Origin: Propionibacteriaceae bacterium | Lineage (GTDB): Bacteria; Actinomycetota; Actinomycetes; Propionibacteriales; Propionibacteriaceae | Direction: 5' to 3' | Assembly (NCBI GenBank): GCA_031256725.1 | Contig: JAIRQE010000005.1 | Location: 113,250 to 145,249, forward strand | DNA length: 32,000 nt | Part shown: in pieces, positions 2,206 to 27,907 of the stretch | Position numbering within the stretch: the stretch's first letter is position 1 | Layout: each line of letters starts with the position of its first letter | Translations under genes and position numbers: made by a program | Notes under the pieces: generated by a model | Databases searched by the model: none | What the model was told of the DNA's origin: nothing | What the model saw: only the letters and a program-made list of their open reading frames with translations

Positions 2206-3138
2206 ATGACAGAAAAGAAAAGAAACATCACCCATCACTACACTCAACGGCAAACTGCCCTGAAAGCAGAAGCAGCCAAGAAGAGACGCAAACGCATCAT
2301 TATCACTGTTGTTGGTCTGATCGTAATCGCTCTTGTACCTGTGGGTGTTGTTCTATCTCAGTTGAACGACACCACATCAAGCAAGCCCAATACCCATGAT
2401 TTTCCGAGTGGGACACCACAGACTCCCCCCACCATAACCAAGGTCGGCGACATCCTCATCCCTCCGTATGGATCTGAGCAGATGGCTTGGATTACTACAA
2501 CCCACGCACCTAAACCCGATGCTCTCATTGTCAACGAACACGTTGAGTACCAATGTGACCGCTGCCAATTGGTACATTCCCTGTATAGCGACCTCTTCCA
2601 AGAACTCGCAGATCGTGGCGACATTGTTCTTCAGATACATCTCCGCTCATTCCTGGACAAAGGCACCTATGAATCCAATGGTGATGTTCTTGATGAGACT
2701 GCTCGCGGAATGAGTCTTTCCACCGTCGCTGCATCAGTCTGCGCCGATACGGTCGGGATGTTTTCTGCCTACCATGATGCTGCCTTCACCCACGCATATA
2801 AACAAACCCTGGATGCGTCCCTTGAGCAGTTGATCATACAGATCCCCAATGAGATCGGGATGACTGGTGGTGAACTGGAAAATTTCCAAGAATGTGTCAC
2901 CACCGAGATGATGCTCCCCTATGTCTATGCGATGGAGAAGACGAATCTCACATCTCGAACCATCAATGGCAAGGATCACGACACGGTTAGGGGAACTCCC
3001 GCTTTCTTCATCGACGGAAACTTCATGATGATGTCAGAGATCGTTGGTCTCACGGAGGACCAAACAGACTATATGGCGCTCTTTACCACTGCGGACGAGT
3101 TGCTTACCTACCTCATATCAGTTTCTAAGCTACCTTAA
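2206..3138 (+). CDS. DsbA-family thiol:disulfide oxidoreductase, membrane-anchored (paralogue 2)
   Basis: Same architecture as the preceding gene, so a tandem paralogue. The KAEAAKKRRKRIIITVVGLIVIALVPVGVVLSQ anchor is nearly identical. The CxxC is YQCDRCQ and the C-terminal motif is GTPAFF. Confidence 0.8.
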   Translation: MTEKKRNITHHYTQRQTALKAEAAKKRRKRIIITVVGLIVIALVPVGVVLSQLNDTTSSKPNTHDFPSGTPQTPPTITKVGDILIPPYGSEQMAWITTTHAPKPDALIVNEHVEYQCDRCQLVHSLYSDLFQELADRGDIVLQIHLRSFLDKGTYESNGDVLDETARGMSLSTVAASVCADTVGMFSAYHDAAFTHAYKQTLDASLEQLIIQIPNEIGMTGGELENFQECVTTEMMLPYVYAMEKTNLTSRTINGKDHDTVRGTPAFFIDGNFMMMSEIVGLTEDQTDYMALFTTADELLTYLISVSKLP

Positions 3139-7497: not shown

Positions 7498-8241
7498 TTA
7501 TTCCCGGACAATATGTGACAAGGATTTGATCCCGCGTTCCAGATGCCAGTTGAGGAAGGCCCTCACAAGGGTTGATCCCTCGGTAATCCGCGTTTCGGGA
7601 ATCTCGCGCGTCTGTATCCAGTCACCGGTCAGTAAGGAGATGAGGTACCCCAAGGTTGCACTTGAGATCGCTGGTACTCCCGCAGGTCGACACCGGCTAC
7701 AGAGCGTACCTCCTGAGCTGGGAGCGAAGTACCCGTGTGGCCCCTCAGATCCGCAGATTGCGCAAGAATCAAGTTGAGGAGCATAGCCAGCAAGACTCGC
7801 CGCCCGAAGGATGTACGAGTCAAGGATCATGGCTGTAGGGCGTACCCCATCGGAGGTACCCTCCCCTAATGCGCGCAAAGCCCCCACAAGAAGCAGGTAA
7901 TGCTGGAGCGCGGGGATTCCCTCTTCAGGTACAAGCTTGTCCGCGATCTCGACCATGACCTCCGCAGTCGTGAATCGTGGGAAGTCATCAAGGAAAGGCC
8001 GTCCGAGAAGGGTTTTCGATACCACCGATGTGAAGATATCGAGGTTACGCCCCTCAGTGATCTGCAAGTCGACCTGAGCGAAGGGCTCCAGTCTCGCTCC
8101 AAATTTGGATGAGGTACGGCGGACCCCCTTCGCAACCCCACGCAATTTCCCGTGCTGTCTGGTGAGGATGGTGATGATCCGGTCGGCTTCCCCCAAACGG
8201 TGGGTGCGCAAAACAACACCCTCATCGTTGAATGTACCCAT
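7498..8241 (-). CDS. recO: DNA repair protein RecO
   Basis: 247 aa. N-terminal OB-fold region (EGVVLRTHRLGEADRIITILTRQHGKLRGVAKGVRR) and a Cys4 zinc motif (CAICG...CSRC). Strong SD GGAGGTGAG at 8243..8251. Confidence 0.9.
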   Translation of the reverse strand: MGTFNDEGVVLRTHRLGEADRIITILTRQHGKLRGVAKGVRRTSSKFGARLEPFAQVDLQITEGRNLDIFTSVVSKTLLGRPFLDDFPRFTTAEVMVEIADKLVPEEGIPALQHYLLLVGALRALGEGTSDGVRPTAMILDSYILRAASLAGYAPQLDSCAICGSEGPHGYFAPSSGGTLCSRCRPAGVPAISSATLGYLISLLTGDWIQTREIPETRITEGSTLVRAFLNWHLERGIKSLSHIVRE

Positions 8242-8258
8242 CTCACCTCCAGTTCACT

Positions 8259-8290
8259 CTGTCATGCTGCGCGAAGTCGCAGCATCCAGA
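8259..8290 (-). repeat. hairpin repeat copy S1 (reverse orientation): TCTGG ATGCTGCG ACTTCG CGCAGCAT GACAG
   Basis: Perfect 8-bp stem (8264..8271 / 8278..8285) and 6-nt loop. Conserved flanks CTGTC (8259..8263) and CCAGA (8286..8290). It abuts the recO SD. Confidence 0.8.
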
Positions 8291-8315
8291 ATATCCAGTC
8301 TCAATGAATCCCAGG

Positions 8316-8348
8316 TCTGGATTCTGCGACTGTCGCGCAGAATGACAG
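8316..8348 (+). repeat. hairpin repeat copy S2: TCTGG ATTCTGCG ACTGTCG CGCAGAAT GACAG
   Basis: Perfect 8-bp stem (8321..8328 / 8336..8343) and 7-nt loop, with the same flanks as S1, S3 and S4. It ends 26 nt before the uppS ATG. Confidence 0.8.
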
Positions 8349-8373
8349 TGGTGCTCACGCTAGGATCAAGTCT

Positions 8374-9147
8374 ATGGTCCAAGGTTATACTCGGCCCGAG
8401 AAGAGGCCCCCGACCCCACATCCATCGGGCGCGGTTGCGCCAACTGGGATAACAGTACCCGCCCATGTCGCCATCGTCATGGATGGCAATGGTCGTTGGG
8501 CTAAGCAACGTGGATTGCCACGTACTGATGGACATGAGCGTGGTGAAGGAGCATTGTTCGATGTCATTGAAGGTGCTATTGAGGTGGGCCTGAAAGCCTT
8601 GACTGTTTATGCCTTTTCCACCGAAAACTGGAAACGCTCCCCCGCTGAGGTTCACTGGCTCATGGGATTCAACCGTGACACCATTCACCGTCGCCGAGGG
8701 GATCTGGATGCACTCGGAGTGAAGATTCGTTGGGCAGGACGTCGCCCCAAACTCTGGGCCTCAGTCATCAAGGAATTGGAAACCGCCGAAGAGATCACCA
8801 AGGACAACACCACACTCACCCTCCAGTTTTGCGTGAACTATGGTGGTCGAGCCGAGATCACCGATGCCGCTCGACGCATCGCCCACGATGCCCAGACTGG
8901 GAAGCTGGATCCTGATCGCCTCACAGAAGCCCGCTTCGCCAAGTACCTCTACTGCCCCGAGATCGCTGACGTTGACCTTTTTGTACGCTCCTCCGGCGAA
9001 CAACGTACCTCCAACTTCCTTATCTGGCAGGCCGCCTATGCTGAGATGGTTTTCCTGGACGTACTATGGCCCGACTTCGACCGTCGGGACCTCTGGAAAG
9101 CCATCGAACTCTACAACGACCGAGAGCGCCGATTTGGGAGTGCCTAA
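8374..9147 (+). CDS. uppS: isoprenyl (undecaprenyl/decaprenyl) diphosphate synthase, cis-prenyltransferase
   Basis: 257 aa. [23 protein letters not shown], and [14 protein letters not shown] near the C-terminus, with a C-terminal RRFG. Confidence 0.93.
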
Positions 9148-9456: not shown

Positions 9457-9521
9457 ATGTACAGAAGATTGTGACGTTATGACAGACCAGAGAATGCAGG
9501 GTTCTGTGTCAGAATTGAGGT

Positions 9522-9806
9522 ATGACCAGGTTCATTATTGATGTACGTACCCCTCAGGAATTTGCGGCACGACACATTGAAGGGGCTATCAACATTGACT
9601 TCCATGATCCCCAGTTCAATACCCAAATGATGGAGTTTCCCAAGGACACCGAGCTGGTGGTGTACTGCAATGCTGGAGGCAGAGCCGGGCGCGCAAAAAC
9701 ACGACTGAAGGAGCTTGGATTCAGTGATGTGACAAGTTACGGGATCATGGGTGCGTCTGCAGCCACTGGCACCCAGGTCCTCTATCAAACAGCTCAAAGG
9801 GATTAG
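9522..9806 (+). CDS. single-domain rhodanese (sulfurtransferase-like) protein
   Basis: 94 aa. IIDVRTPQEFAARHIEGAINI and the active-site loop VVYCNAGGRAGRA (CxxGxR). Flanked by about 370 bp and 500 bp of apparently non-coding or decayed DNA. Confidence 0.85.
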   Translation: MTRFIIDVRTPQEFAARHIEGAINIDFHDPQFNTQMMEFPKDTELVVYCNAGGRAGRAKTRLKELGFSDVTSYGIMGASAATGTQVLYQTAQRD

Positions 9807-10135
9807 GCTCCTTCGGACGTAACTATTGACAGATTCACGCCATATGTTCGAACTGAAATAGTCAAGGTTCTCCCACCAAGTACTATCCTGATCAACATGA
9901 TCATACTGATCGATATGGAGGTACGACATGATAACCGAAGTCACAGCTGTCGCTTTCAGACAACACCTCGTCGCGGACGACCACCATATTCAGTCGATGC
10001 ATAACAAATCCGATGATCATTCTCGTTGAGCAACCCATATCCCAGAAAACCAAGTACAGGCGCCCAAAACTCCGTGGCCCGCTGTCTATCAGCCACAGCG
10101 ATCATCATGTGAGCCAACAACCCCAGATTACTCAT
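9803..10135 (-). pseudogene. frameshifted VOC (glyoxalase/bleomycin-resistance/dioxygenase fold) family gene remnant
   Basis: ATG at 10135, preceded by GAGGGGGA, opens a 59-codon ORF. It reads MSNLGLLAHMMIAVADRQRATEFWAPVLGFLGYGLL...CYASTEYGG and resembles a VOC N-terminus. It stops at 9956. VOC-like continuation appears in the other two frames (VVVRDEVLSES..FGYHV; LHIDQYDHVDQ; ..VRTYGVNLSIVTSEGA*), ending at TAA 9805..9803. Total about 111 codons with at least two frameshifts. Family assignment is from memory of typical VOC sequences. Confidence 0.4.
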
Positions 10136-12418: not shown

Positions 12419-12517
12419 AGGAATACTCTACTGGATTGAAATAGGGTCACAGTCACCACATTCACTCCCACGTTCATCAGCAAGTCCTATACGCCAAGAG
12501 ATACGTCCCCTGACACA

Positions 12518-12526
12518 CCCCCCCCC
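12518..12526. repeat. C9 (G9 on the purN strand) homopolymer tract
   Basis: Nine consecutive C at 12518..12526. They are flanked by the direct repeat CCCCTGACAC (12507..12516 and 12523..12532, overlapping the tract). Confidence 0.9.
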
Positions 12527-12562
12527 TGACACGTCCCCCACTGTCATCCAGGATGATATCCT

Positions 12563-12677
12563 ATTCACAATAGTCCCTGCAAAAGTTCACAAAATCAACA
12601 TGATTCCAAAGCCTTCACATGGATTGTGAACTTGCACTCTATGGAGAGCCCTCTGAGTACGTCAGAGTTCACAATCC
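12563..12677. promoter_or_regulatory. cluster of TTCACAA/TTGTGAA motifs, including a perfect 12-bp inverted repeat, upstream of purN
   Basis: ATTCACAAT starts at 12563 and GTTCACAAA at 12585. GGATTGTGAACT (12621..12632) is the exact reverse complement of AGTTCACAATCC (12666..12677), with a 33-nt spacer. The cluster lies in the 304-bp spacer between the perM stop and the purN start. Confidence 0.5.
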
Positions 12678-12722
12678 TGTCTAGGGTCACCCTTTATGCC
12701 CTGAAATTGTGCGGTTTTACCA

Positions 12723-14522
12723 TCAGGATTCATCATCCCCATGGAAATCTAGGGGCAATTGCTCACCAATGATTAGATCATAGGCCTTATCGGGGTTTAG
12801 CGAGGTCGTGGACTCTTCAATAGATCCATGAGATTCCTCAATGTTCCTCTTCTTGGCTTTTTGGAAGACGGGACCCAACCATCCCATCCTACGCTTGACT
12901 GAGAGTTCCTCCTTCGTGAGCGATGATGGGCCTTCAAGTTCACCTGCGGGAGAATCCACAAAACGGGTTACGATCGTCATCTCAGATTCACGATTGGACT
13001 CGGAATCCTTCACGACCATCGTAGGTTTGTCTCCATCCTGTCGTGAGGACTCTTGTACCTCAGGAACAGAATCCGGCAACTGAGAGGTTTCCTCCGATTC
13101 AGGATCGGGGTGACTGCGCCTTCCTCGGGGCAGTGGTTCACCTGTTTCCTCCATCAATTCGGGTCCACCCCTCTTGGGCCAACGTACCAACTGGGTCGCT
13201 CTTTCATAGGTCTCGGTTGGCTCATCATTAGGGGTACCTGTACCCCACCGTGACCACCACCAGGGATCAGCAGGACCAACGGGTTTACGTACCAAACCAA
13301 GAATCAGACCAGTTAGAATCCCCGCCAACCCCATGAGACTAGGAGCTACCACCAGCAGAGGTAGGAGCATCGGTCCAAGGCTGGACAGCCGATCAACACC
13401 AAGACTTCCCGAAGTCAAGGTGGCCAAACCAACTAATGCTAGGCCGGCTAGTACCCCTGAAAGCCCCCCAACTAGGGCTGTTTCGTCGAAACGGACTGCA
13501 GGACGTACCCTCAAAACCATGAGGGCGGCCACTGCACCAGCCAGTACGGGGATGGCCAGCCACGCGAGACTGGCGGGATCAGGGTCGGTGGGCAGGGCAG
13601 CAGTGATCGGGAAAGCGGGAAGCAGACCCACATGGGAGCCAGCCAGAGAGATGACCGACTCGTCACCGATCGTGAACCCAGGACCGAAAGACCAGGAGGT
13701 ACACCACATGATGATATTAGGCGAGTAGAAGAACTGAATGAGCGTGAGAACAATGACTCCAACCCAGCCAGGATAGAGGTGATCGGTGAGCGTGAGGAAG
13801 AGTTCCCGATTGAGGATCAGCGATGTGAGAAGTACAACAAACCCACCGATAATCGCGACGAGGACACCGGAGCCCACAGCTTGAGGGATTGCCTGAGTCC
13901 AGATGGGCCAGATTGGCCGCTGTTCCCAGCGAATCGTTTTCCGTGACCCCAGGAAACTCATCACTGCTGAAAGCAGGATCGCTCCGATACCTGCACGGGT
14001 ATTGGGCCCGCCCGCGTCAATGAACAGTGCTGCCCCCACGACAAGTGATGCATAGGTGGCGGTGATCACTCCAACCACCTTGGCGATTACCTGGGGTCTA
14101 CGCAGATCATCCCCACCACTGCGATCCGCTTGCTTTCCACAGTACCCTCCGACCCCATGGAGAAGGAGCCCGACCATGGCAGTCAATCCGAGGGGTACAA
14201 GAGTGATGGTGGTTGCCCCCAATTGAAGAACCCCACCATGTATCAGGAGCCAGATTCGGGTGGACAACCGCAGGGTTTCGGAAACATTGATCTCTTCTTG
14301 GGTCACCACCGAGGTGAGTACCATAGCTGCGATGACTGCCCATCCCGCGACTGCACACAGGATGGCACCACCAACCCCAGCTATCCACCAGGGCATTGTT
14401 GGCTGAGGTACCTGCTCTTGGGCAGGCTCGTATGTTTCCAGAGTTAGTCGTGCCGTGAGAGAGTCTTCGCGAACCATCCCTTCATTCTGGCTTGGGGTTT
14501 GAGTACTGGGGGACTCCCACAC
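12723..14522 (-). CDS. perM: polytopic membrane protein, PerM-like (cell-division associated), with long acidic C-terminal tail
   Basis: 599 aa, about 10 hydrophobic helices followed by a roughly 190-aa Glu/Ser/Pro-rich tail. The position directly upstream of purN-purH matches M. tuberculosis Rv0955(perM)-purN-purH, recalled from memory. GTG start at 14522 lacks a clear SD, so the start is uncertain (ATG 14477 is the alternative). Confidence 0.55.
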   Translation of the reverse strand: MWESPSTQTPSQNEGMVREDSLTARLTLETYEPAQEQVPQPTMPWWIAGVGGAILCAVAGWAVIAAMVLTSVVTQEEINVSETLRLSTRIWLLIHGGVLQLGATTITLVPLGLTAMVGLLLHGVGGYCGKQADRSGGDDLRRPQVIAKVVGVITATYASLVVGAALFIDAGGPNTRAGIGAILLSAVMSFLGSRKTIRWEQRPIWPIWTQAIPQAVGSGVLVAIIGGFVVLLTSLILNRELFLTLTDHLYPGWVGVIVLTLIQFFYSPNIIMWCTSWSFGPGFTIGDESVISLAGSHVGLLPAFPITAALPTDPDPASLAWLAIPVLAGAVAALMVLRVRPAVRFDETALVGGLSGVLAGLALVGLATLTSGSLGVDRLSSLGPMLLPLLVVAPSLMGLAGILTGLILGLVRKPVGPADPWWWSRWGTGTPNDEPTETYERATQLVRWPKRGGPELMEETGEPLPRGRRSHPDPESEETSQLPDSVPEVQESSRQDGDKPTMVVKDSESNRESEMTIVTRFVDSPAGELEGPSSLTKEELSVKRRMGWLGPVFQKAKKRNIEESHGSIEESTTSLNPDKAYDLIIGEQLPLDFHGDDES

Positions 14523-15086: not shown

Positions 15087-17699
15087 CTACAGCTTCTCCA
15101 CTGGGGAGTGTTTGAGCGAAAGGATCTTCGTACCATAGGAGCCGAAGTCGACCTTGGCTCGAGGATCGCCACTATGATCGAAGGCTTCGAGTACTGTACC
15201 CAATCCGAAGGAGGAGTGGATCACTCGGTCTCCAGCTACGAGATCAGGAACGATCTTAGGCTTTGCGGAGGTGGAACGGATCGAGGATTGAAGTTTTTCG
15301 GGTGCCGTTTTGGTACGCATCTGTGGAGTGGGAGCGACACTTGCCCCCCAGTTGGCGACTCGTCCCTGGCGGCGCCATTCGATGAGTCGTTCGGGAATCT
15401 CACTCAGGAATCGACTCTCGGGATTGTAGGCCGGATTCCCCCAGAGGGTACGTACCTCGCTGCGTGAGACATAGAGTCTGTTGCGGGCACGGGTCAATCC
15501 GACGTAGGCGAGACGTCTTTCCTCCTCTAGTTCTGCACGTGATGATTGGGCTCTCTCATGAGGGAATAACCCCTCCTCGAATCCAGTCACAAAGACAGTG
15601 TCGAACTCTAGCCCCTTGGCTGTGTGGAGGGTCATCAGGGTGACCACTGCCTCACCCACTTTCCCGTCAGGGATCTGATCGGAGTCGGCTACGAGAGCGA
15701 TCCTTTCCAGGAAGGCTGGCAGGGAGTCATCAGGTTCTGGTGCTCCCATGAGTCCTACGTGATTATCGTCGTGGGTTTCCCCGGATTCTTGTCTGGATCC
15801 TGCGACGGAGCGCAGGATGACGGGGTTGGACTCTGAACTACCCAACCATTCGCCTGCATCCCCGTCCAGGGGATCATCGTCATGGGTGATCCCATCCTCG
15901 ACATCAATCTCGTGAGCTGCCCCAACGAACTCCGTCGCAACAGCAATGAGTTCAGCGAGGTTCTCCAGTCGAGTCTCATCTTGGGGGTCTTGGGAATCCT
16001 TAAGAATGTCGAGATAACCAGACTCTTGAAGGATGGACCTCAGGATCTCGTCGGCGGGCACCCCCGCAGTAATCATCTCGCGATGCTTCGACATCAACTC
16101 AGCAAACCGAGCTAAGCCATTGACCGCACGAGCACTCAACCCCGGAATAGTGTCGGCACCCTCAATGGCTTCGGTAATCGTGATCGACTTCGCCCGAGCA
16201 TGAGACCTTACAGTCTCCTGAGTCGTATCCCCGATACCACGCCGAGGTACGTTGATGATCCGCTCAATAGACACCTCATCAGCCGGATTAGCCAAGGCCC
16301 TCAAATAGGCGATGGCATCGCGTACCTCCCGACGCTCATAGAACTTCACGCCACCGACAACCCGATAGGGAACCCCCAACCGAATGAAGACATCCTCAAC
16401 AGCCCGAGACTGGGCATTCGTACGATAAAAAACAGCCGCATCCCCTAACCGCGACTCCCCCGCAGCCGAGAGGGTTCGTATCTCGTCAGCGATAAACCGG
16501 GCCTCATCATGCTCGGTGTCCCCCACATAGCCAACCACAAGCGGACCATCTCCCGCATCAGTCCACAGGTTCTTCTCAGGCCGGGAACGATTGTGCCGAA
16601 TCAGTGAATTGGCAGCCGAAAGAATGTTCTGGGTCGAACGGTAATTCTGTTCCAGTTGGATGACCCGGGCACCCGGAAAGTCCTCAGAAAAGTTGAGGAT
16701 ATTCGTGATCGACGCCCCCCGGAAAGCATAGATCGACTGATCCGAATCACCAACCACCATCAACTCTGGAGCCTCACCATGCCCAGCCCCACCTTCAGGA
16801 GAACAGAGCAACTGTATTAACACGTACTGCGCATGGTTGGTGTCCTGATATTCATCCACAAGTACGTGCCGGAATCGCCGACGGTACTTCTCACGAACCT
16901 CTGAATGCTCCCGAAACAAACGTACTGTCGACATCAGAAGGTCATCAAAATCCAGAGCCTCGGCCGCAATCAAGCGATCCCTATATTCAGCATAAACCTC
17001 AGCATAAACACTCACTGGATATTTAGTACTCGAAGCCAAGGCCTCATCCGCCCACACCAGCGCATTCTTCTGATCAGAGATCCACGAGCGTACCGTTCGT
17101 ACAGGAAACTTCTTTGTATCCAGGTTCTTCTCGCGAAGAATCGTACTCACAAGTCTCTTCGAATCCATGTCATCGTAGATCGAAAAAGTCTTCGACACCC
17201 CAAGTTTGTCGATATCGGCCCGAAGGATGCGTACACACGCACTGTGGAAGGTCGCCACCCACATGTACCGCGAGCGATTCCCCACTAGTTCGCCAACCCG
17301 CTCCCTCATCTCAGCAGCAGCCTTATTCGTGAAGGTGATCGCCAGGATCGCACCAGGATGTACCCCACCAGCAGAGATCAAATAGGCAATCCTTCGAGTC
17401 AGTACACGAGTCTTCCCCGACCCTGCCCCCGCCACGACAAGCAGCGGTGACCCACAATGAAGGACAGCCTGCTCTTGCGGAGGATTGAGCCCCTCAACAA
17501 GGGCGGCAATACGATCAGCCTGAGAGGGTGAGTCATCGTCTCGAGAGTACCCATGGTCTGGCGAGAATCCTTGGTCGTGAGTGTACCCATCCTCAGTAGG
17601 AGGCTCAGCCTCAGGATCAGGTGGTGGCTCACTCATCTGTGCAGCGAACAGCGCCTCCACATCCTCTGCAGAGAAACCTTCATCAAACACCGAATTCAT
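15087..17699 (-). CDS. pcrA: ATP-dependent DNA helicase PcrA (UvrD/Rep superfamily 1)
   Basis: 870 aa. Walker A AGAGSGKTRVLT, VDEYQDTN, QNYRST, and LHTAKGLEFDTVFVTG followed by RRLAYVGLTRAR. It has an acidic N-terminal extension and a C-terminal Tudor-like tail typical of actinobacterial PcrA/UvrD1. Confidence 0.93.
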   Translation of the reverse strand: MNSVFDEGFSAEDVEALFAAQMSEPPPDPEAEPPTEDGYTHDQGFSPDHGYSRDDDSPSQADRIAALVEGLNPPQEQAVLHCGSPLLVVAGAGSGKTRVLTRRIAYLISAGGVHPGAILAITFTNKAAAEMRERVGELVGNRSRYMWVATFHSACVRILRADIDKLGVSKTFSIYDDMDSKRLVSTILREKNLDTKKFPVRTVRSWISDQKNALVWADEALASSTKYPVSVYAEVYAEYRDRLIAAEALDFDDLLMSTVRLFREHSEVREKYRRRFRHVLVDEYQDTNHAQYVLIQLLCSPEGGAGHGEAPELMVVGDSDQSIYAFRGASITNILNFSEDFPGARVIQLEQNYRSTQNILSAANSLIRHNRSRPEKNLWTDAGDGPLVVGYVGDTEHDEARFIADEIRTLSAAGESRLGDAAVFYRTNAQSRAVEDVFIRLGVPYRVVGGVKFYERREVRDAIAYLRALANPADEVSIERIINVPRRGIGDTTQETVRSHARAKSITITEAIEGADTIPGLSARAVNGLARFAELMSKHREMITAGVPADEILRSILQESGYLDILKDSQDPQDETRLENLAELIAVATEFVGAAHEIDVEDGITHDDDPLDGDAGEWLGSSESNPVILRSVAGSRQESGETHDDNHVGLMGAPEPDDSLPAFLERIALVADSDQIPDGKVGEAVVTLMTLHTAKGLEFDTVFVTGFEEGLFPHERAQSSRAELEEERRLAYVGLTRARNRLYVSRSEVRTLWGNPAYNPESRFLSEIPERLIEWRRQGRVANWGASVAPTPQMRTKTAPEKLQSSIRSTSAKPKIVPDLVAGDRVIHSSFGLGTVLEAFDHSGDPRAKVDFGSYGTKILSLKHSPVEKL
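15792..15823 (+). repeat. hairpin repeat copy S4 inside pcrA: TCTGG ATCCTGCG ACGGAG CGCAGGAT GACGG
   Basis: Perfect 8-bp stem (15797..15804 / 15811..15818). About 40 nt of near-identity to S3. Lies within the pcrA ORF. Confidence 0.8.
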
Positions 17700-17722
17700 C
17701 CTTCATCAAACACCGAATTCAT
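17677..17722. repeat. perfect 23-bp tandem duplication spanning the pcrA start codon
   Basis: CCTTCATCAAACACCGAATTCAT occurs at 17677..17699 and again at 17700..17722. Each copy contains CAT, which is ATG on the minus strand. Confidence 0.95.
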
Positions 17723-19123: not shown

Positions 19124-19157
19124 GGGGGTGTTAGGGGACGTATCTCTTGACACCCCC
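19124..19157. terminator. G/C-rich hairpin filling the convergent GlsB / response-regulator gap (putative bidirectional terminator or repeat element)
   Basis: GGGGGTGT (19124..19131) pairs with ACACCCCC (19150..19157). The 18-nt interior can pair further (GGGGA-CGTA-TCTCT with G.U pairs). There is no clear U-tract on either side. It lies 5 nt after the GlsB stop and 3 nt before the regulator stop. Confidence 0.45.
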
Positions 19158-23583: not shown

Positions 23584-23721
23584 GGGAATGTGTGACCGTT
23601 GCTTCGCGAGAGTACGTTCGCTTCCGTGCTCGCAAAGCGTAGCACGGGCTCTCTTAACTTCGACAAAATAGCTACGCAATTTGGTCTCGTGTCTCCCGCG
23701 AAGCAACGGTCACACATCCCC
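23584..23721. repeat. 138-bp nested inverted-repeat element between icd and the CNNM gene
   Basis: Arms 23584..23612 and 23693..23721. The core ATGTGTGACCGTTGCTTCGCG (23588..23608) pairs perfectly over 21 bp with 23697..23717. An inner hairpin CCGTGCT-CGC-AAA-GCG-T-AGCACGG lies at 23624..23647. A further hairpin GCGAAT-ACTG-ATTCGC lies at 23549..23564. Confidence 0.85.
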
Positions 23722-25928: not shown

Positions 25929-27365
25929 TCAACCCACGAGCAGGGGGCGTACCAAAGCGGCCATGTACAGCGATCCGGTCACGAGTACTTCTTCTGCCAG
26001 GTCATCTAAAAGTACACGCAGGGCTTGATCCAGATCATGGATGATCCTCACCGGTATCCCCAGGTCTTGGGCTATGGCTGCTACTTGGGTGGGTGGTACT
26101 GAGGCTTTAATCTTGTCGTCTTTGCCGAGTTGGAACTGCGGAACAATAAGATGGGAGACTACGGGAGCAAGAGCTGCCAGGGTTTCGAGGATCTTGGTTT
26201 CGGGAGCTTTGGTGAGAGTGGCGAGTGTTGGAAAAGGGCCTAGGCCTTGAGCTTGGATGGTTTCCACCAGGGAAGCTACTTTTTGTGGGTTGTGAGCGCC
26301 GTCTAGGAGTACGCGGTGGTGGCCTGTCTGTATCCATTCGAATCTTGCAGGTGGTACGACGTGCATGAGTTCATCGTGGTGGGTTGGGATTGTGAACTTG
26401 TCGCGTTGGGCTATGTGGGAGACTGCAGCAAGAGCCAGATCCCAGTTGCGGAGTTGGTACTGAGGGATCTGGATTCGAAGCGTGGATTGACCAGCACAAA
26501 GATCCAAGGTGTGACGGGACTCTGAATCCAGCGATGGAGCCTGAGAGTACATAGTTTCATCTTCGGCACAGATTTCCGAAGTATGGTGAGTCTGTGGATC
26601 CTGCGACTGCGCGCAGGATGACAGGGGTGGGATACAGGATGACGGGAGTGGGACACAGGATCCAGGAACGACAACCATCCGGGCGTTGATCTCATCCGTC
26701 TTGGACTTGATGACCTCCAGGACTTCCAGGGATTGGTCGACAACGAAAACCACTCCACCTTCTACGATGATCCCGGCTTTCTGGGCAGCGATCTCAGCAA
26801 TCGTACCCCCGAGTTTCTCAGTATGATCCAGCCCTATCGGTCCGATGACCGCAACCTTGTCTGAGCGATTGAGGATATTGGTGGCATCCCTTGTACCACC
26901 AATGCCCACTTCGACAACTGCATAATCGACCCGTTCCTGCGCGAAAACCCATATTGCTAAGCAGATCATGAGCTCAAAGTAGGTGAGGTGACCGCGCAGA
27001 GGTTCCAGGAGGCTCAGCATCTGGTCGGCATAGCGACACAAGCGTTCCTCCTCCAGGGGGAGTCCACCCACTTGTACCCTCTCGTTGAGGGTGACTATGT
27101 GGGGGGAGACTGTTAGCCCGGTACGAAAGCCGCTGGCTTCCAGGAGAGCGCGAATATAGTAGCAAGTCGAGGTTTTCCCGGAGGTACCTGTGATGTGAAT
27201 GACGCGTAGATCCTGCTCGGGATTACCCAGGAGGTCCATCGCCTTGGCCATAGCAGCCAGTGAGGATCGCCCTGACTCTCGTGTACCTGCAAAAGTGAAA
27301 AGATCCTTGAGGAGACGATCAAAACCCCCACGGTCTAAAGATCGCCCCAGGATAGAATCCTCCAT
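25929..27365 (-). CDS. folC: folylpolyglutamate synthase/dihydrofolate synthase-like Mur-ligase family protein, carrying a repeat-derived insertion
   Basis: P-loop ITGTSGKTST, VVEVGIGGTRDATNIL and GPIGLDHTEKLGGTIAEIAAQKAGII are FolC hallmarks. MEDSILG (ATG 27365) is taken as the start, overlapping the upstream gene's 3' end. The track extends to 27416. A low-complexity Cys/Pro/Ser segment is encoded at 26540..26665. Confidence 0.8.
   Translation of the reverse strand: MEDSILGRSLDRGGFDRLLKDLFTFAGTRESGRSSLAAMAKAMDLLGNPEQDLRVIHITGTSGKTSTCYYIRALLEASGFRTGLTVSPHIVTLNERVQVGGLPLEEERLCRYADQMLSLLEPLRGHLTYFELMICLAIWVFAQERVDYAVVEVGIGGTRDATNILNRSDKVAVIGPIGLDHTEKLGGTIAEIAAQKAGIIVEGGVVFVVDQSLEVLEVIKSKTDEINARMVVVPGSCVPLPSSCIPPLSSCAQSQDPQTHHTSEICAEDETMYSQAPSLDSESRHTLDLCAGQSTLRIQIPQYQLRNWDLALAAVSHIAQRDKFTIPTHHDELMHVVPPARFEWIQTGHHRVLLDGAHNPQKVASLVETIQAQGLGPFPTLATLTKAPETKILETLAALAPVVSHLIVPQFQLGKDDKIKASVPPTQVAAIAQDLGIPVRIIHDLDQALRVLLDDLAEEVLVTGSLYMAALVRPLLVG
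26591..26624 (+). repeat. hairpin repeat copy S3 inside the folC-like gene: TCTGTGG ATCCTGCG ACTGCG CGCAGGAT GACAG
   Basis: Perfect 8-bp stem (26598..26605 / 26612..26619). Lies within the ORF and is followed by tandem copies of its right arm. Confidence 0.8.
26614..26663 (+). repeat. 21-bp tandem repeat (2.4 units) derived from the right arm of S3
   Basis: CAGGATGACAGGGGTGGGATA (26614..26634) and CAGGATGACGGGAGTGGGACA (26635..26655) match at 18 of 21 positions. A partial unit CAGGATCC follows (26656..26663). On the coding strand they read CVPLPSS / CIPPLSS / CAQSQDP. Confidence 0.85.
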
Positions 27366-27907
27366 GCTCCTGGTTCCCCTTCCACGATGACGATGTCTGT
27401 GTTCTGCAGGCGCCACTTCGGATCGGAATCAGCCTTAACATCACTGCGAGCATTGAGCCATGTGTAGAGGGCACCGCCATGGCTCACCACGACTGCGCAT
27501 TCATAGTCCTGGAGTTCGGCGATGGCAGCATCAAAGCGGGCAAAGAAAGTGTGACCGTCATCCCCATTGGGCATCGATCTATCGAGGTCCTTAGGCCAGG
27601 ATGTGATGACCTCTTGGTACCCCGTCCATTCGACATCCATCTCCCAATCCCCTGCGAAGATCTCGCGTACCCCCGGGTGGGTGATCAGTGGAACCTTGAA
27701 GGTGGCAGCAATAGGCTCACCAGTTTGGCGGGCGCGAGTGATGTCCGAGGTCATGACGATCTCAATGGGTTCCCCCTCAAGTCTGCCAGGAAGACTCGCT
27801 GCCTGCTCTTCACCAACCTCATCAAGAGGAGCCCCTGGAAAGTCAGTATCAAGAAGGTGGTTGACGTTGGATTGGGTACGTCCATGACGTATGAAGATGA
27901 TGCGCAC
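27335..27907 (-). CDS. histidine phosphatase (phosphoglycerate-mutase-like) family protein
   Basis: MRIIFIRHGRTQSN (RHG catalytic motif) and a later VVVSHGG (second His). Confidence 0.85.
   Translation of the reverse strand: MRIIFIRHGRTQSNVNHLLDTDFPGAPLDEVGEEQAASLPGRLEGEPIEIVMTSDITRARQTGEPIAATFKVPLITHPGVREIFAGDWEMDVEWTGYQEVITSWPKDLDRSMPNGDDGHTFFARFDAAIAELQDYECAVVVSHGGALYTWLNARSDVKADSDPKWRLQNTDIVIVEGEPGAWRILSWGDL

Follow-up and report, generated by a model that had tools for sequence, protein, structure and literature searches.

What are four nearly identical palindromes doing in a single stretch of an actinobacterial genome, and why do two of them face each other in the short spacer between the divergent genes recO and uppS? 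We examined this question in 32,000 nt of a Propionibacteriaceae bacterium (assembly GCA_031256725.1, contig JAIRQE010000005.1, positions 113,250 to 145,249), called the window below, which has a G+C content of 54.5% and encodes, among others, purA, recO, uppS, purH, pcrA, icd and folC. A preliminary description had listed four hairpin copies, S1 to S4, and had been unable to assign them to any named family. They can be named: with a probability of roughly 85%, S1-S4 are non-coding, non-autonomous dispersed repeats of the repetitive extragenic palindromic (REP) type, which by their architecture fall into the CGTC-tagged superfamily and are passengers in the window rather than dedicated regulators. 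The four units are the following.

8259 to 8290, minus strand: unit S1, left half of a head-to-head dimer; single-stranded DNA fold of −11.5 kcal/mol.
8316 to 8348, plus strand: unit S2, forming the right half, with a loop of 7 nt and the tag GACAG at its outer (3') end; fold of −9.2 kcal/mol.
15792 to 15823, plus strand: unit S4, in frame in pcrA, encoding NPVILRSVAGSRQ, with the atypical loop ACGGAG and a CGTC tag.
26591 to 26624, plus strand: unit S3, in frame in folC, encoding PLSSCAQSQDPQT.

Exact reading places the four copies where the preliminary description had put them, and also bears out its variable third stem position (G:C, T:A, C:G and C:G), the 25-nt gap between S1 and S2 and the 26 nt from the end of S2 to the uppS ATG at 8374. 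Its statement that S1 abuts the recO Shine-Dalgarno sequence is approximately right, the end of S1 lying about 9 nt from GGAGG (reverse complement of 8246-8250). Read on the opposite strand, all four share the layout YGTC / AT-N-CTGCG / CGNAGT / CGCAG-N'-AT / CCA; for S1 this reads, tag first on the plus strand, c TGTC ATGCTGCG CGAAGT CGCAGCAT CCA ga. The tag is TGTC in S1, S2 and S3 and CGTC in S4, the loop counts 6 nt in S1, S3 and S4 and 7 nt in S2, and both the CCA tail and the 8-bp stem AT-N-CTGCG / CGCAG-N'-AT are present in 4 of 4 units. A search of the window with GGATNCTGCGAC-N4-5-CGCAGNATGAC, a pattern of 21 fixed bases in which the third stem pair and the loop were left free, matched S1-S4 only, i.e. 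4 matches compared to 0.00 in 100 dinucleotide-preserving shuffles. As single-stranded DNA each unit folds into the 8-bp hairpin plus a short lower helix at −9.0 to −11.5 kcal/mol (z −3.3 to −4.5), and S1 and S2 can fold jointly into one 96-nt hairpin of about −32 kcal/mol (z −8 to −9). Read tag first, the unit holds no stop codon in any frame; the opposite orientation has a TGA in one frame. A CRISPR repeat, an integron attC site, a dif/Xer site, a hammerhead ribozyme and a sequencing adapter were each considered and dropped from sequence alone.

The superfamily to which this layout points was defined by Di Nocera, De Gregorio and Rocco in 2013 (PMC3733652). That paper describes an unpaired terminal CGTC tag, often TGTC with CCTC also allowed, stems of 8-9 bp that almost always open with complementary A-T residues in positions 1-2, an unpaired 3-nt tail of consensus CCA, and loops of 4-5 nt (the length in all of CGTC-1 to CGTC-4), from which some hosts deviate. 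It further describes a predominance of head-to-head (HH, tags outside) dimers, clusters that reiterate units with flanking DNA, and sub-families with alternative complementary stem residues, compensatory change being presented as a general REP property; the units are mostly intergenic, some lying wholly inside open reading frames (ORFs). The present repeat shares the tag, the AT-opening stem, the CCA tail, the HH predominance, the complementary sub-families and the mostly intergenic location with some copies in ORFs.

The same pattern was run over a genome collection with one genome per species. The scan gave copies in at least 120 stretches from at least 54 assemblies of about seven phyla. 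The phyla among the matches listed are Proteobacteria, Desulfobacterota, Campylobacterota, Firmicutes, Actinobacteria, Elusimicrobia and Riflebacteria. Among these listed matches, the hosts include Alpha-, Beta- and Gammaproteobacteria, Desulfobacterota and Helicobacteraceae; the Firmicutes are represented by Oscillospiraceae, Christensenellaceae and Family XIII; the Actinobacteria by Propionibacteriaceae (six metagenome-assembled genomes, MAGs), Leucobacter (two isolates), Microbacterium, Ruaniaceae and Coriobacteriia; and Endomicrobium and Riflebacteria complete the list. Most of these hosts are MAGs, many of them from termite gut, and several assemblies, e.g. Vitreoscilla, Alcanivorax and Desulfovibrionaceae MAGs, hold at least 10 loci each. 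As CGTC hosts, PMC3733652 names Proteobacteria, Bacteroidetes/Chlorobi, Thermotogae and a spirochaete. Its list lacks Actinobacteria, Firmicutes, Elusimicrobia and Riflebacteria, all of which carry the present repeat.

The predominance of MAGs would suit an assembly or adapter artefact, or else a chance palindrome, to which we give practically no credence. Zero matches are expected by chance, and copies occur in the isolate genomes of Leucobacter celer, Leucobacter soli and Thiomicrospira microaerophila. Copies are also embedded in ORFs and in lineage-specific flanks of very different G+C; since these flanks range from AT-rich to very GC-rich, the copies reside in truly different genomes. The locus itself recurs in an independent Logan assembly. 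Outside cellular genomes, a BLAST search of a plasmid collection gave chance-level matches only (E about 7), and a scan of 2.9 million viral contigs gave 1 match, so the repeat is not phage-borne.

The wider sample supports the proposal that S1-S4 belong to a dispersed hairpin repeat family rather than being half-site operators. Of 139 copies, 136 have a Watson-Crick pair at the free stem position. In the formal pair count, 133 of 135 copies pair at this position (CG 84, UA 40, GC 7, AU 1, UG 1, unpaired or other 2), and none of 500 shuffles reaches the observed pairing or covariation; the complementarity first noticed in four copies, with its four pair types, thus holds in a larger independent sample. 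These counts bear on a further explanation, that a dimeric transcription factor uses the palindrome as its operator and co-regulates recO and uppS. A symmetric sequence in a divergent promoter region is what such an operator would look like; half-site tolerance, however, would not give 133 of 135 complementary pairs, copies lie within pcrA and folC, the neighbouring genes are unrelated across at least 54 assemblies of about seven phyla, and close relatives have recO and uppS without the element. We consider an operator very improbable.

The positions left free by the pattern carry the superfamily features as well. The tail base left free by the pattern, the A of CCA (on the other strand, a T directly 5' of GGAT), is present in 134 of 139 copies, and CCA in 144 of 179 when the tail is left unconstrained. 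The GTC of the tag was fixed by the search pattern; at the free first base, the 139 copies divide into 66 with C, 58 with T, 10 with G and 5 with A, and the base 3' of ATGAC is correspondingly G in 66 and A in 58. Conservation across phyla stops outside the core, each lineage having its own extended flanks or spacers. The commonest loop of the family is ACTNCG, of 6 nt, and a long-loop variant has 16 nt.

The arrangements found are single units, inverted pairs, tandem arrays of tag-side half-units and heterodimers of a short-loop with a 16-nt long-loop unit. Neighbouring units no more than 150 nt apart form HH pairs in 66 cases, head-to-tail (HT) pairs in 43 and tail-to-tail (TT) pairs in 23; HT pairs are commoner than described in PMC3733652 largely because of half-unit tails. 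Many HH dimers join a short-loop unit (CGNAGT) to a left partner with a loop of about 16 nt (L007, L018, L021, L024, L034, L055, L063, L067, L071-L073, L089, L090, L097, L113 and L121), and this long loop reads like the 5-mer CGAAG triplicated, CG[GA]AGCGAAGCG[GA]AGT. At the variable stem position, 32 of 61 dimers are heterodimers. Stop-free stretches of at least 300 codons hold 33% of the copies compared to 75% of random positions, i.e. the copies are depleted in long ORFs. Most intragenic candidates in the other genomes turned out to be spurious high-GC frames or copies just upstream of a real gene start; the only one that looks genuine is L058, in a linker between LarE-like and LarB-like regions.

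The elements of the locus that raised the question, the recO/uppS spacer, are as follows.

7498 to 8241, minus strand: recO (TIGR00613), left neighbour of the S1/S2 dimer.
8259 to 8348, no strand: HH heterodimer S1/S2, filling 90 nt of the 132-nt gap that separates the recO start at 8241 from the uppS start at 8374.
8291 to 8315, no strand: intra-dimer spacer of 25 nt; the spacers of HH dimers elsewhere measure about 2 to 60 nt.
8374 to 9147, plus strand: uppS-type isoprenyl transferase gene (NF011404), right neighbour of the dimer.

S1/S2 is an ordinary HH dimer of the CGTC-tagged superfamily. In six relatives with divergent recO/uppS, the spacers measure about 40-110 nt and none holds a unit. 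The spacer in the window, 132 nt long, is 42 nt without the 90-nt dimer, and the comparison with the relatives is consistent with the dimer having been added later to a spacer of about 42 nt. The earlier claim that S1 and S2 are not terminators for recO or uppS is sustained by their location between divergent gene starts and by the lack of a T-run, which is absent after all of S1-S4, so that none has the GC-rich hairpin plus T-run of an intrinsic terminator; no terminator-like site was found in 8150-8450. A promoter and terminator consensus scan of the spacer gave nothing, and S1/S2 create no sigma-70-type consensus. We saw no evidence for a function of the units within the window, and a role specific to the recO/uppS leaders is argued against by the fact that two of the four copies are in-frame coding insertions.

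A different proposal is that the hairpin acts as RNA, as a cis-acting structure in the recO/uppS leaders or in mRNAs generally, tuning stability, translation or processing. S1 and S2 each read TGGAT...ATGAC in the sense of their own adjacent gene, the T directly 5' of the unit has, in the possible lower helix, G as its partner in 62 of 135 copies and A in 54, as expected from G-U wobble on that strand, and PMC3733652 argues that many REPs are transcribed. S3 and S4, on the other side, are transcribed in the opposite sense and within coding sequence. Rfam gave no match anywhere in the window at gathering score and, by E-value on the S1/S2 dimer, only sub-threshold miRNA-hairpin look-alikes. The recO/uppS pair of the relatives works without the element. 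The sequence TAGGAT at 8361-8366, downstream of S2 and 7 nt before the uppS ATG, may serve as the −10 element of a leaderless uppS mRNA, in which case S2 would be outside that mRNA; the similar CTAGTCT stands before the ATG in the relative L127, which has no repeat. ATGACA was rejected as a −35 hexamer, being, as judged from the letters only, too close to TAGGAT (14 nt). Taken together, a cis-acting RNA element seems unlikely to us. An RNA-level role of individual copies would be compatible with REP identity and would be at most an exaptation.

The gene order at this locus has a history of its own. Most actinobacterial relatives (L130, L136-L142 and others) have recO immediately upstream of uppS and in the same orientation; the window and its closest relatives (L126-L132, L158 and L163) have recO inverted, which gives the divergent pair. 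This inversion is a local event older than the REP dimer.

The two remaining units lie inside the pcrA and folC ORFs, where both frames remain open, a location overlooked in the preliminary description, as were two extra 21-nt half-unit repeats next to S3. The features concerned are these.

15087 to 17699, minus strand: pcrA/uvrD-type helicase gene, host of S4 (NCBIfam TIGR01073, matched in 2 stretches).
25929 to 27416, minus strand: folC, folylpolyglutamate/dihydrofolate synthase gene, host of S3 (NCBIfam TIGR01499, matched in 2 stretches).
26635 to 26666, plus strand: tail array after S3, in which CAGGATGAC plus 12 nt (26614-26634, overlapping S3) is repeated at 26635-26655.

The family models match PcrA and FolC each in two stretches, one on either side of the repeat, and the minus-strand host genes read S4 and S3 tag first, in two different frames (VILRSVAGS and SSCAQSQDP). 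Compared with M. tuberculosis UvrD1, PcrA has 64 residues (query 592-656) where the structure has 17 (chain 547-564), and the approximately 47 extra residues lie exactly at S4. This region is a hypervariable linker in Propionibacteriaceae. The window PcrA is 100% identical to P0001, from a Propionibacteriaceae MAG, and the next relatives are only about 69% identical. Two related MAGs whose PcrA is 67-68% identical hold decayed units at the same linker point (L122:7825-7900 and L123:11850-11900). The first reads TGTC ATCCTGC CGCAG GCAGGAT CTC, with a 7-bp stem and three tag-side half-units before it, and the second CGTC ATCCTG GAGCAGG CAGGAT CTT, with a 6-bp stem. Both stems are thus shortened yet still paired, and the decayed units encode SSVILPP repeats. 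Because decayed units stand at the matching point in two relatives, either the pcrA insertion is old or the site has been re-used. Such a host agrees with PMC3733652, in which intragenic copies are over-represented in replication and repair genes, including a UvrD/REP helicase. At the start of the gene, 17677-17722 is a perfect 23-nt tandem duplication (CCTTCATCAAACACCGAATTCAT twice); on the minus strand, the opening 23 nt of pcrA with its ATG are thereby present in two copies (ATGAATTCGGTGTTTGATGAAGG twice).

In the same way, the FolC of a relative with 54% identity is without the block of about 59 residues that holds S3, and the alignment of the window FolC to a PDB structure is split at residues 224-317. 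The S3 array ends with CAGGATCCAGG (26656-26666), which resembles the tail end of an opposite-facing unit, and its 21-nt period is translated into the 7-residue peptide repeat SCVPLPS/SCIPPLS/SCAQSQ. Half-unit arrays like that of S3 follow many copies in other genomes.

How the units came to these places can be proposed as follows. One HH dimer has probably been added to a short divergent recO/uppS spacer, and the variable surface linkers of PcrA and FolC have each taken up a single unit in frame, one of the two with tandem half-unit tails. The unit would spread, or would once have spread, as a folded single strand, with a trans-acting enzyme recognising the hairpin shape together with the unpaired YGTC tag and the CCA tail; only variants with a paired stem would be propagated, which would yield the compensatory sub-families. 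GTAG REPs are handled by RAYT/IS200-type HUH tyrosine transposases, and the same logic applies to IS200/IS605 ends; single-strand mobilisation and the class of enzyme are suggested here by analogy with these systems. Speculatively, the tag-anchored half-unit arrays suggest that the events start at the tag side.

The shape of the unit allows a competing view, in which it is the site of a site-specific recombinase or the target of an insertion element. With arms of about 11 bp on either side of a 6-7-bp centre, it is similar to the core site of a tyrosine recombinase, having inverted 8-bp arms, asymmetric outer triplets (CCA versus GAC) and a 6-7-nt centre. Neisseria dRS3 is a target of prophage and IS110-type integration. 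PMC3733652 equates CGTC-1 with dRS3. In a duplex site, however, covariation between the arms at a position that tolerates change would have no explanation. Moreover, no recurrent integrase or recombinase was found beside the copies, nothing is inserted at any of S1-S4, and the many copies per genome, the tandem half-units and the in-frame copies speak against such a site, which we regard as quite improbable, more so than an RNA element.

Several observations weigh against the assignment of S1-S4 to the CGTC-tagged REPs, or against the way of spreading proposed for them. The copy number in the host rests on 4 units in the 32-kb window. The loop of 6-7 nt, or 16 nt in the long-loop variant, differs from the published 4-5 nt. 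The covariation concerns one testable stem pair, the other seven being fixed by the pattern, and its four pair types may go back to as few as three ancestral events. The 29-nt core is near-identical across phyla. Such cross-phylum near-identity is unusual for REPs, which are mostly lineage-specific. The sequence family is probably uncatalogued, being set apart from the published ones by the peptides and descriptions in PMC3733652 rather than by published consensus sequences. The searches for an enzyme point in the same direction. All-against-all clustering of 3536 ORFs around 120 loci gave only large generic families and no recurrent neighbour, and the RAYT NPVRAG-type motif, looked for near the copies with a regular expression, was not found. 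A phmmer search with 8 RAYT/TIRYT queries against 7012 ORFs from 0.92 Mb of flanks gave two Y1-like ORFs (L005 and L105), neither of which is flanked by the present repeat. Finally, the closest relatives, which are 54-75% identical in the flanking proteins and are too divergent for nucleotide alignment, gave no target duplication and no filled site that could be matched base by base to an empty one, so that the empty-site comparison consists of spacer lengths and protein gaps.

The outcome of the enzyme searches agrees with PMC3733652, according to which CGTC repeats are without a linked or dedicated transposase. Genes bracketed by opposed copies (L029 and L065) were considered as transposases and proved to be flagellin and ordinary metabolic genes. 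The L105 ORF has nothing relevant flanking it. The L005 ORF, at L005:1-1300 in Thiomicrospira microaerophila, is a Y1/IS200-like transposase gene amid many copies of an unrelated AT-rich repeat, AATTTAAAAGTGGCTGTCCTTTTAAT; it represents a different pairing of repeat and transposase, and the CGTC-type unit occurs in that genome too.

The window holds further repeats. A 29-nt inverted repeat with arms at 23584-23612 and 23693-23721, 93% complementary and 80 nt apart, lies in the spacer directly 3' of icd and forms a 138-nt hairpin of a sequence unrelated to the REP; it could be a MITE-like element (miniature inverted-repeat transposable element) or a terminator. Another dispersed repeat of 26 nt, CAAGAGATACGTCCCCTGACACACCC, occurs at 12495-12520 and, inverted, at 19124-19149, with 6.6 kb between the copies. 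Its first copy is located in a spacer of 300 nt (12419-12722) in which G-runs and GTGTCAGGGG direct repeats are abundant. In the same spacer, 12541-12562 on the minus strand reads AGGATATCATCCTGGATGACAG, where a short AGGAT/ATCCT palindrome precedes the REP tag-side motif GGATGACAG, and may be a decayed REP relic. The neighbouring genes at 1290-2192 and 2206-3138 are paralogous, with a 98-nt stretch 71% identical at a spacing of 895 nt. NCBIfam gave no match for the minus-strand ORFs 12723-14522 (599 aa) and 9477-9944 (155 aa).

The assignment to the CGTC-tagged REPs accounts for four odd palindromes as well as for the anomalous lengths of PcrA and FolC, which exceed the expected ones by about 47 and about 59 residues, and a regulator of recO/uppS is no longer needed as an explanation. 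It also extends CGTC-type REPs to Gram-positive phyla. That one core sequence is common to several phyla is unusual for REPs and is the most interesting residue of the analysis. We tentatively propose, as a possibility to which we give clearly less than even odds, that the unit represents a fifth CGTC-type family, whose core TGGAT-N-CTGCG-ACTNCG-CGCAG-N'-ATGAC-R is near-unchanged across about seven phyla (at least 54 assemblies), and that the folded core is recognised by a single conserved enzyme, which would act in trans and probably moves horizontally. The sharply defined cross-phylum core and the half-unit arrays offer a practical handle for an enzyme search by co-occurrence; if the proposal of a fifth family is true, phylogenetic profiling together with the half-unit arrays could identify the long-missing enzyme that mobilises CGTC repeats.

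The unit can be compared with several known systems. Like MITEs, it is small, non-autonomous and multi-copy and may sit in frame in genes; it differs in that it has no identifiable parent insertion sequence and that single 30-nt units stand alone. With the GTAG REPs, REPINs and BIMEs it shares hairpins with an unpaired conserved tag and inverted doublets foldable as one long hairpin, and, like E. coli BIMEs with their Y and Z units, it has two unit types in heterodimers. The tag is GTAG/GTGG there and YGTC here, and no RAYT gene flanked by the present units was found. The unit is not a member of the REP/REPIN-RAYT system, and a shared mobilisation mechanism would be an analogy only. Neisseria dRS3 and NIMEs have the same layout of tag, AT-stem and CCA and the same clustering of units; dRS3 differs in its sequence, ATTCCC-N8-GGGAAT, and the window holds no NIME-like mosaic blocks. 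Rickettsia RPE-4 and RPE-6, which PMC3733652 equates with CGTC-4 and CGTC-1, are likewise short palindromes in frame in housekeeping genes, in surface or linker regions, with DNA-repair and replication genes among their hosts. They differ in stem and loop sequences and in phylum, the present unit being about 30 nt long plus optional half-unit tails.

The closest comparison is with CGTC-1 to CGTC-4. The stem core is CTGCG here and ATTCCCGC-GAAA in CGTC-1, the published stems being deduced from the peptides listed in PMC3733652; the peptides of CGTC-1, -3 and -4 imply other stems, e.g. VIPAKAGI from ATTCCCGC-GAAA-GCGGGAAT. None of the peptides encoded by the present unit appears in the intragenic table of that paper, and a literal search of the literature for variants of the core sequence gave chance primer matches only. 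Beyond the sequence, the agreement with CGTC-1 to CGTC-4 extends to the tag, the 8-bp AT-opening stem, the CCA tail, the HH dimers, the complementary sub-families, the lack of a linked transposase and the in-frame intragenic units, including one in a UvrD/REP helicase.

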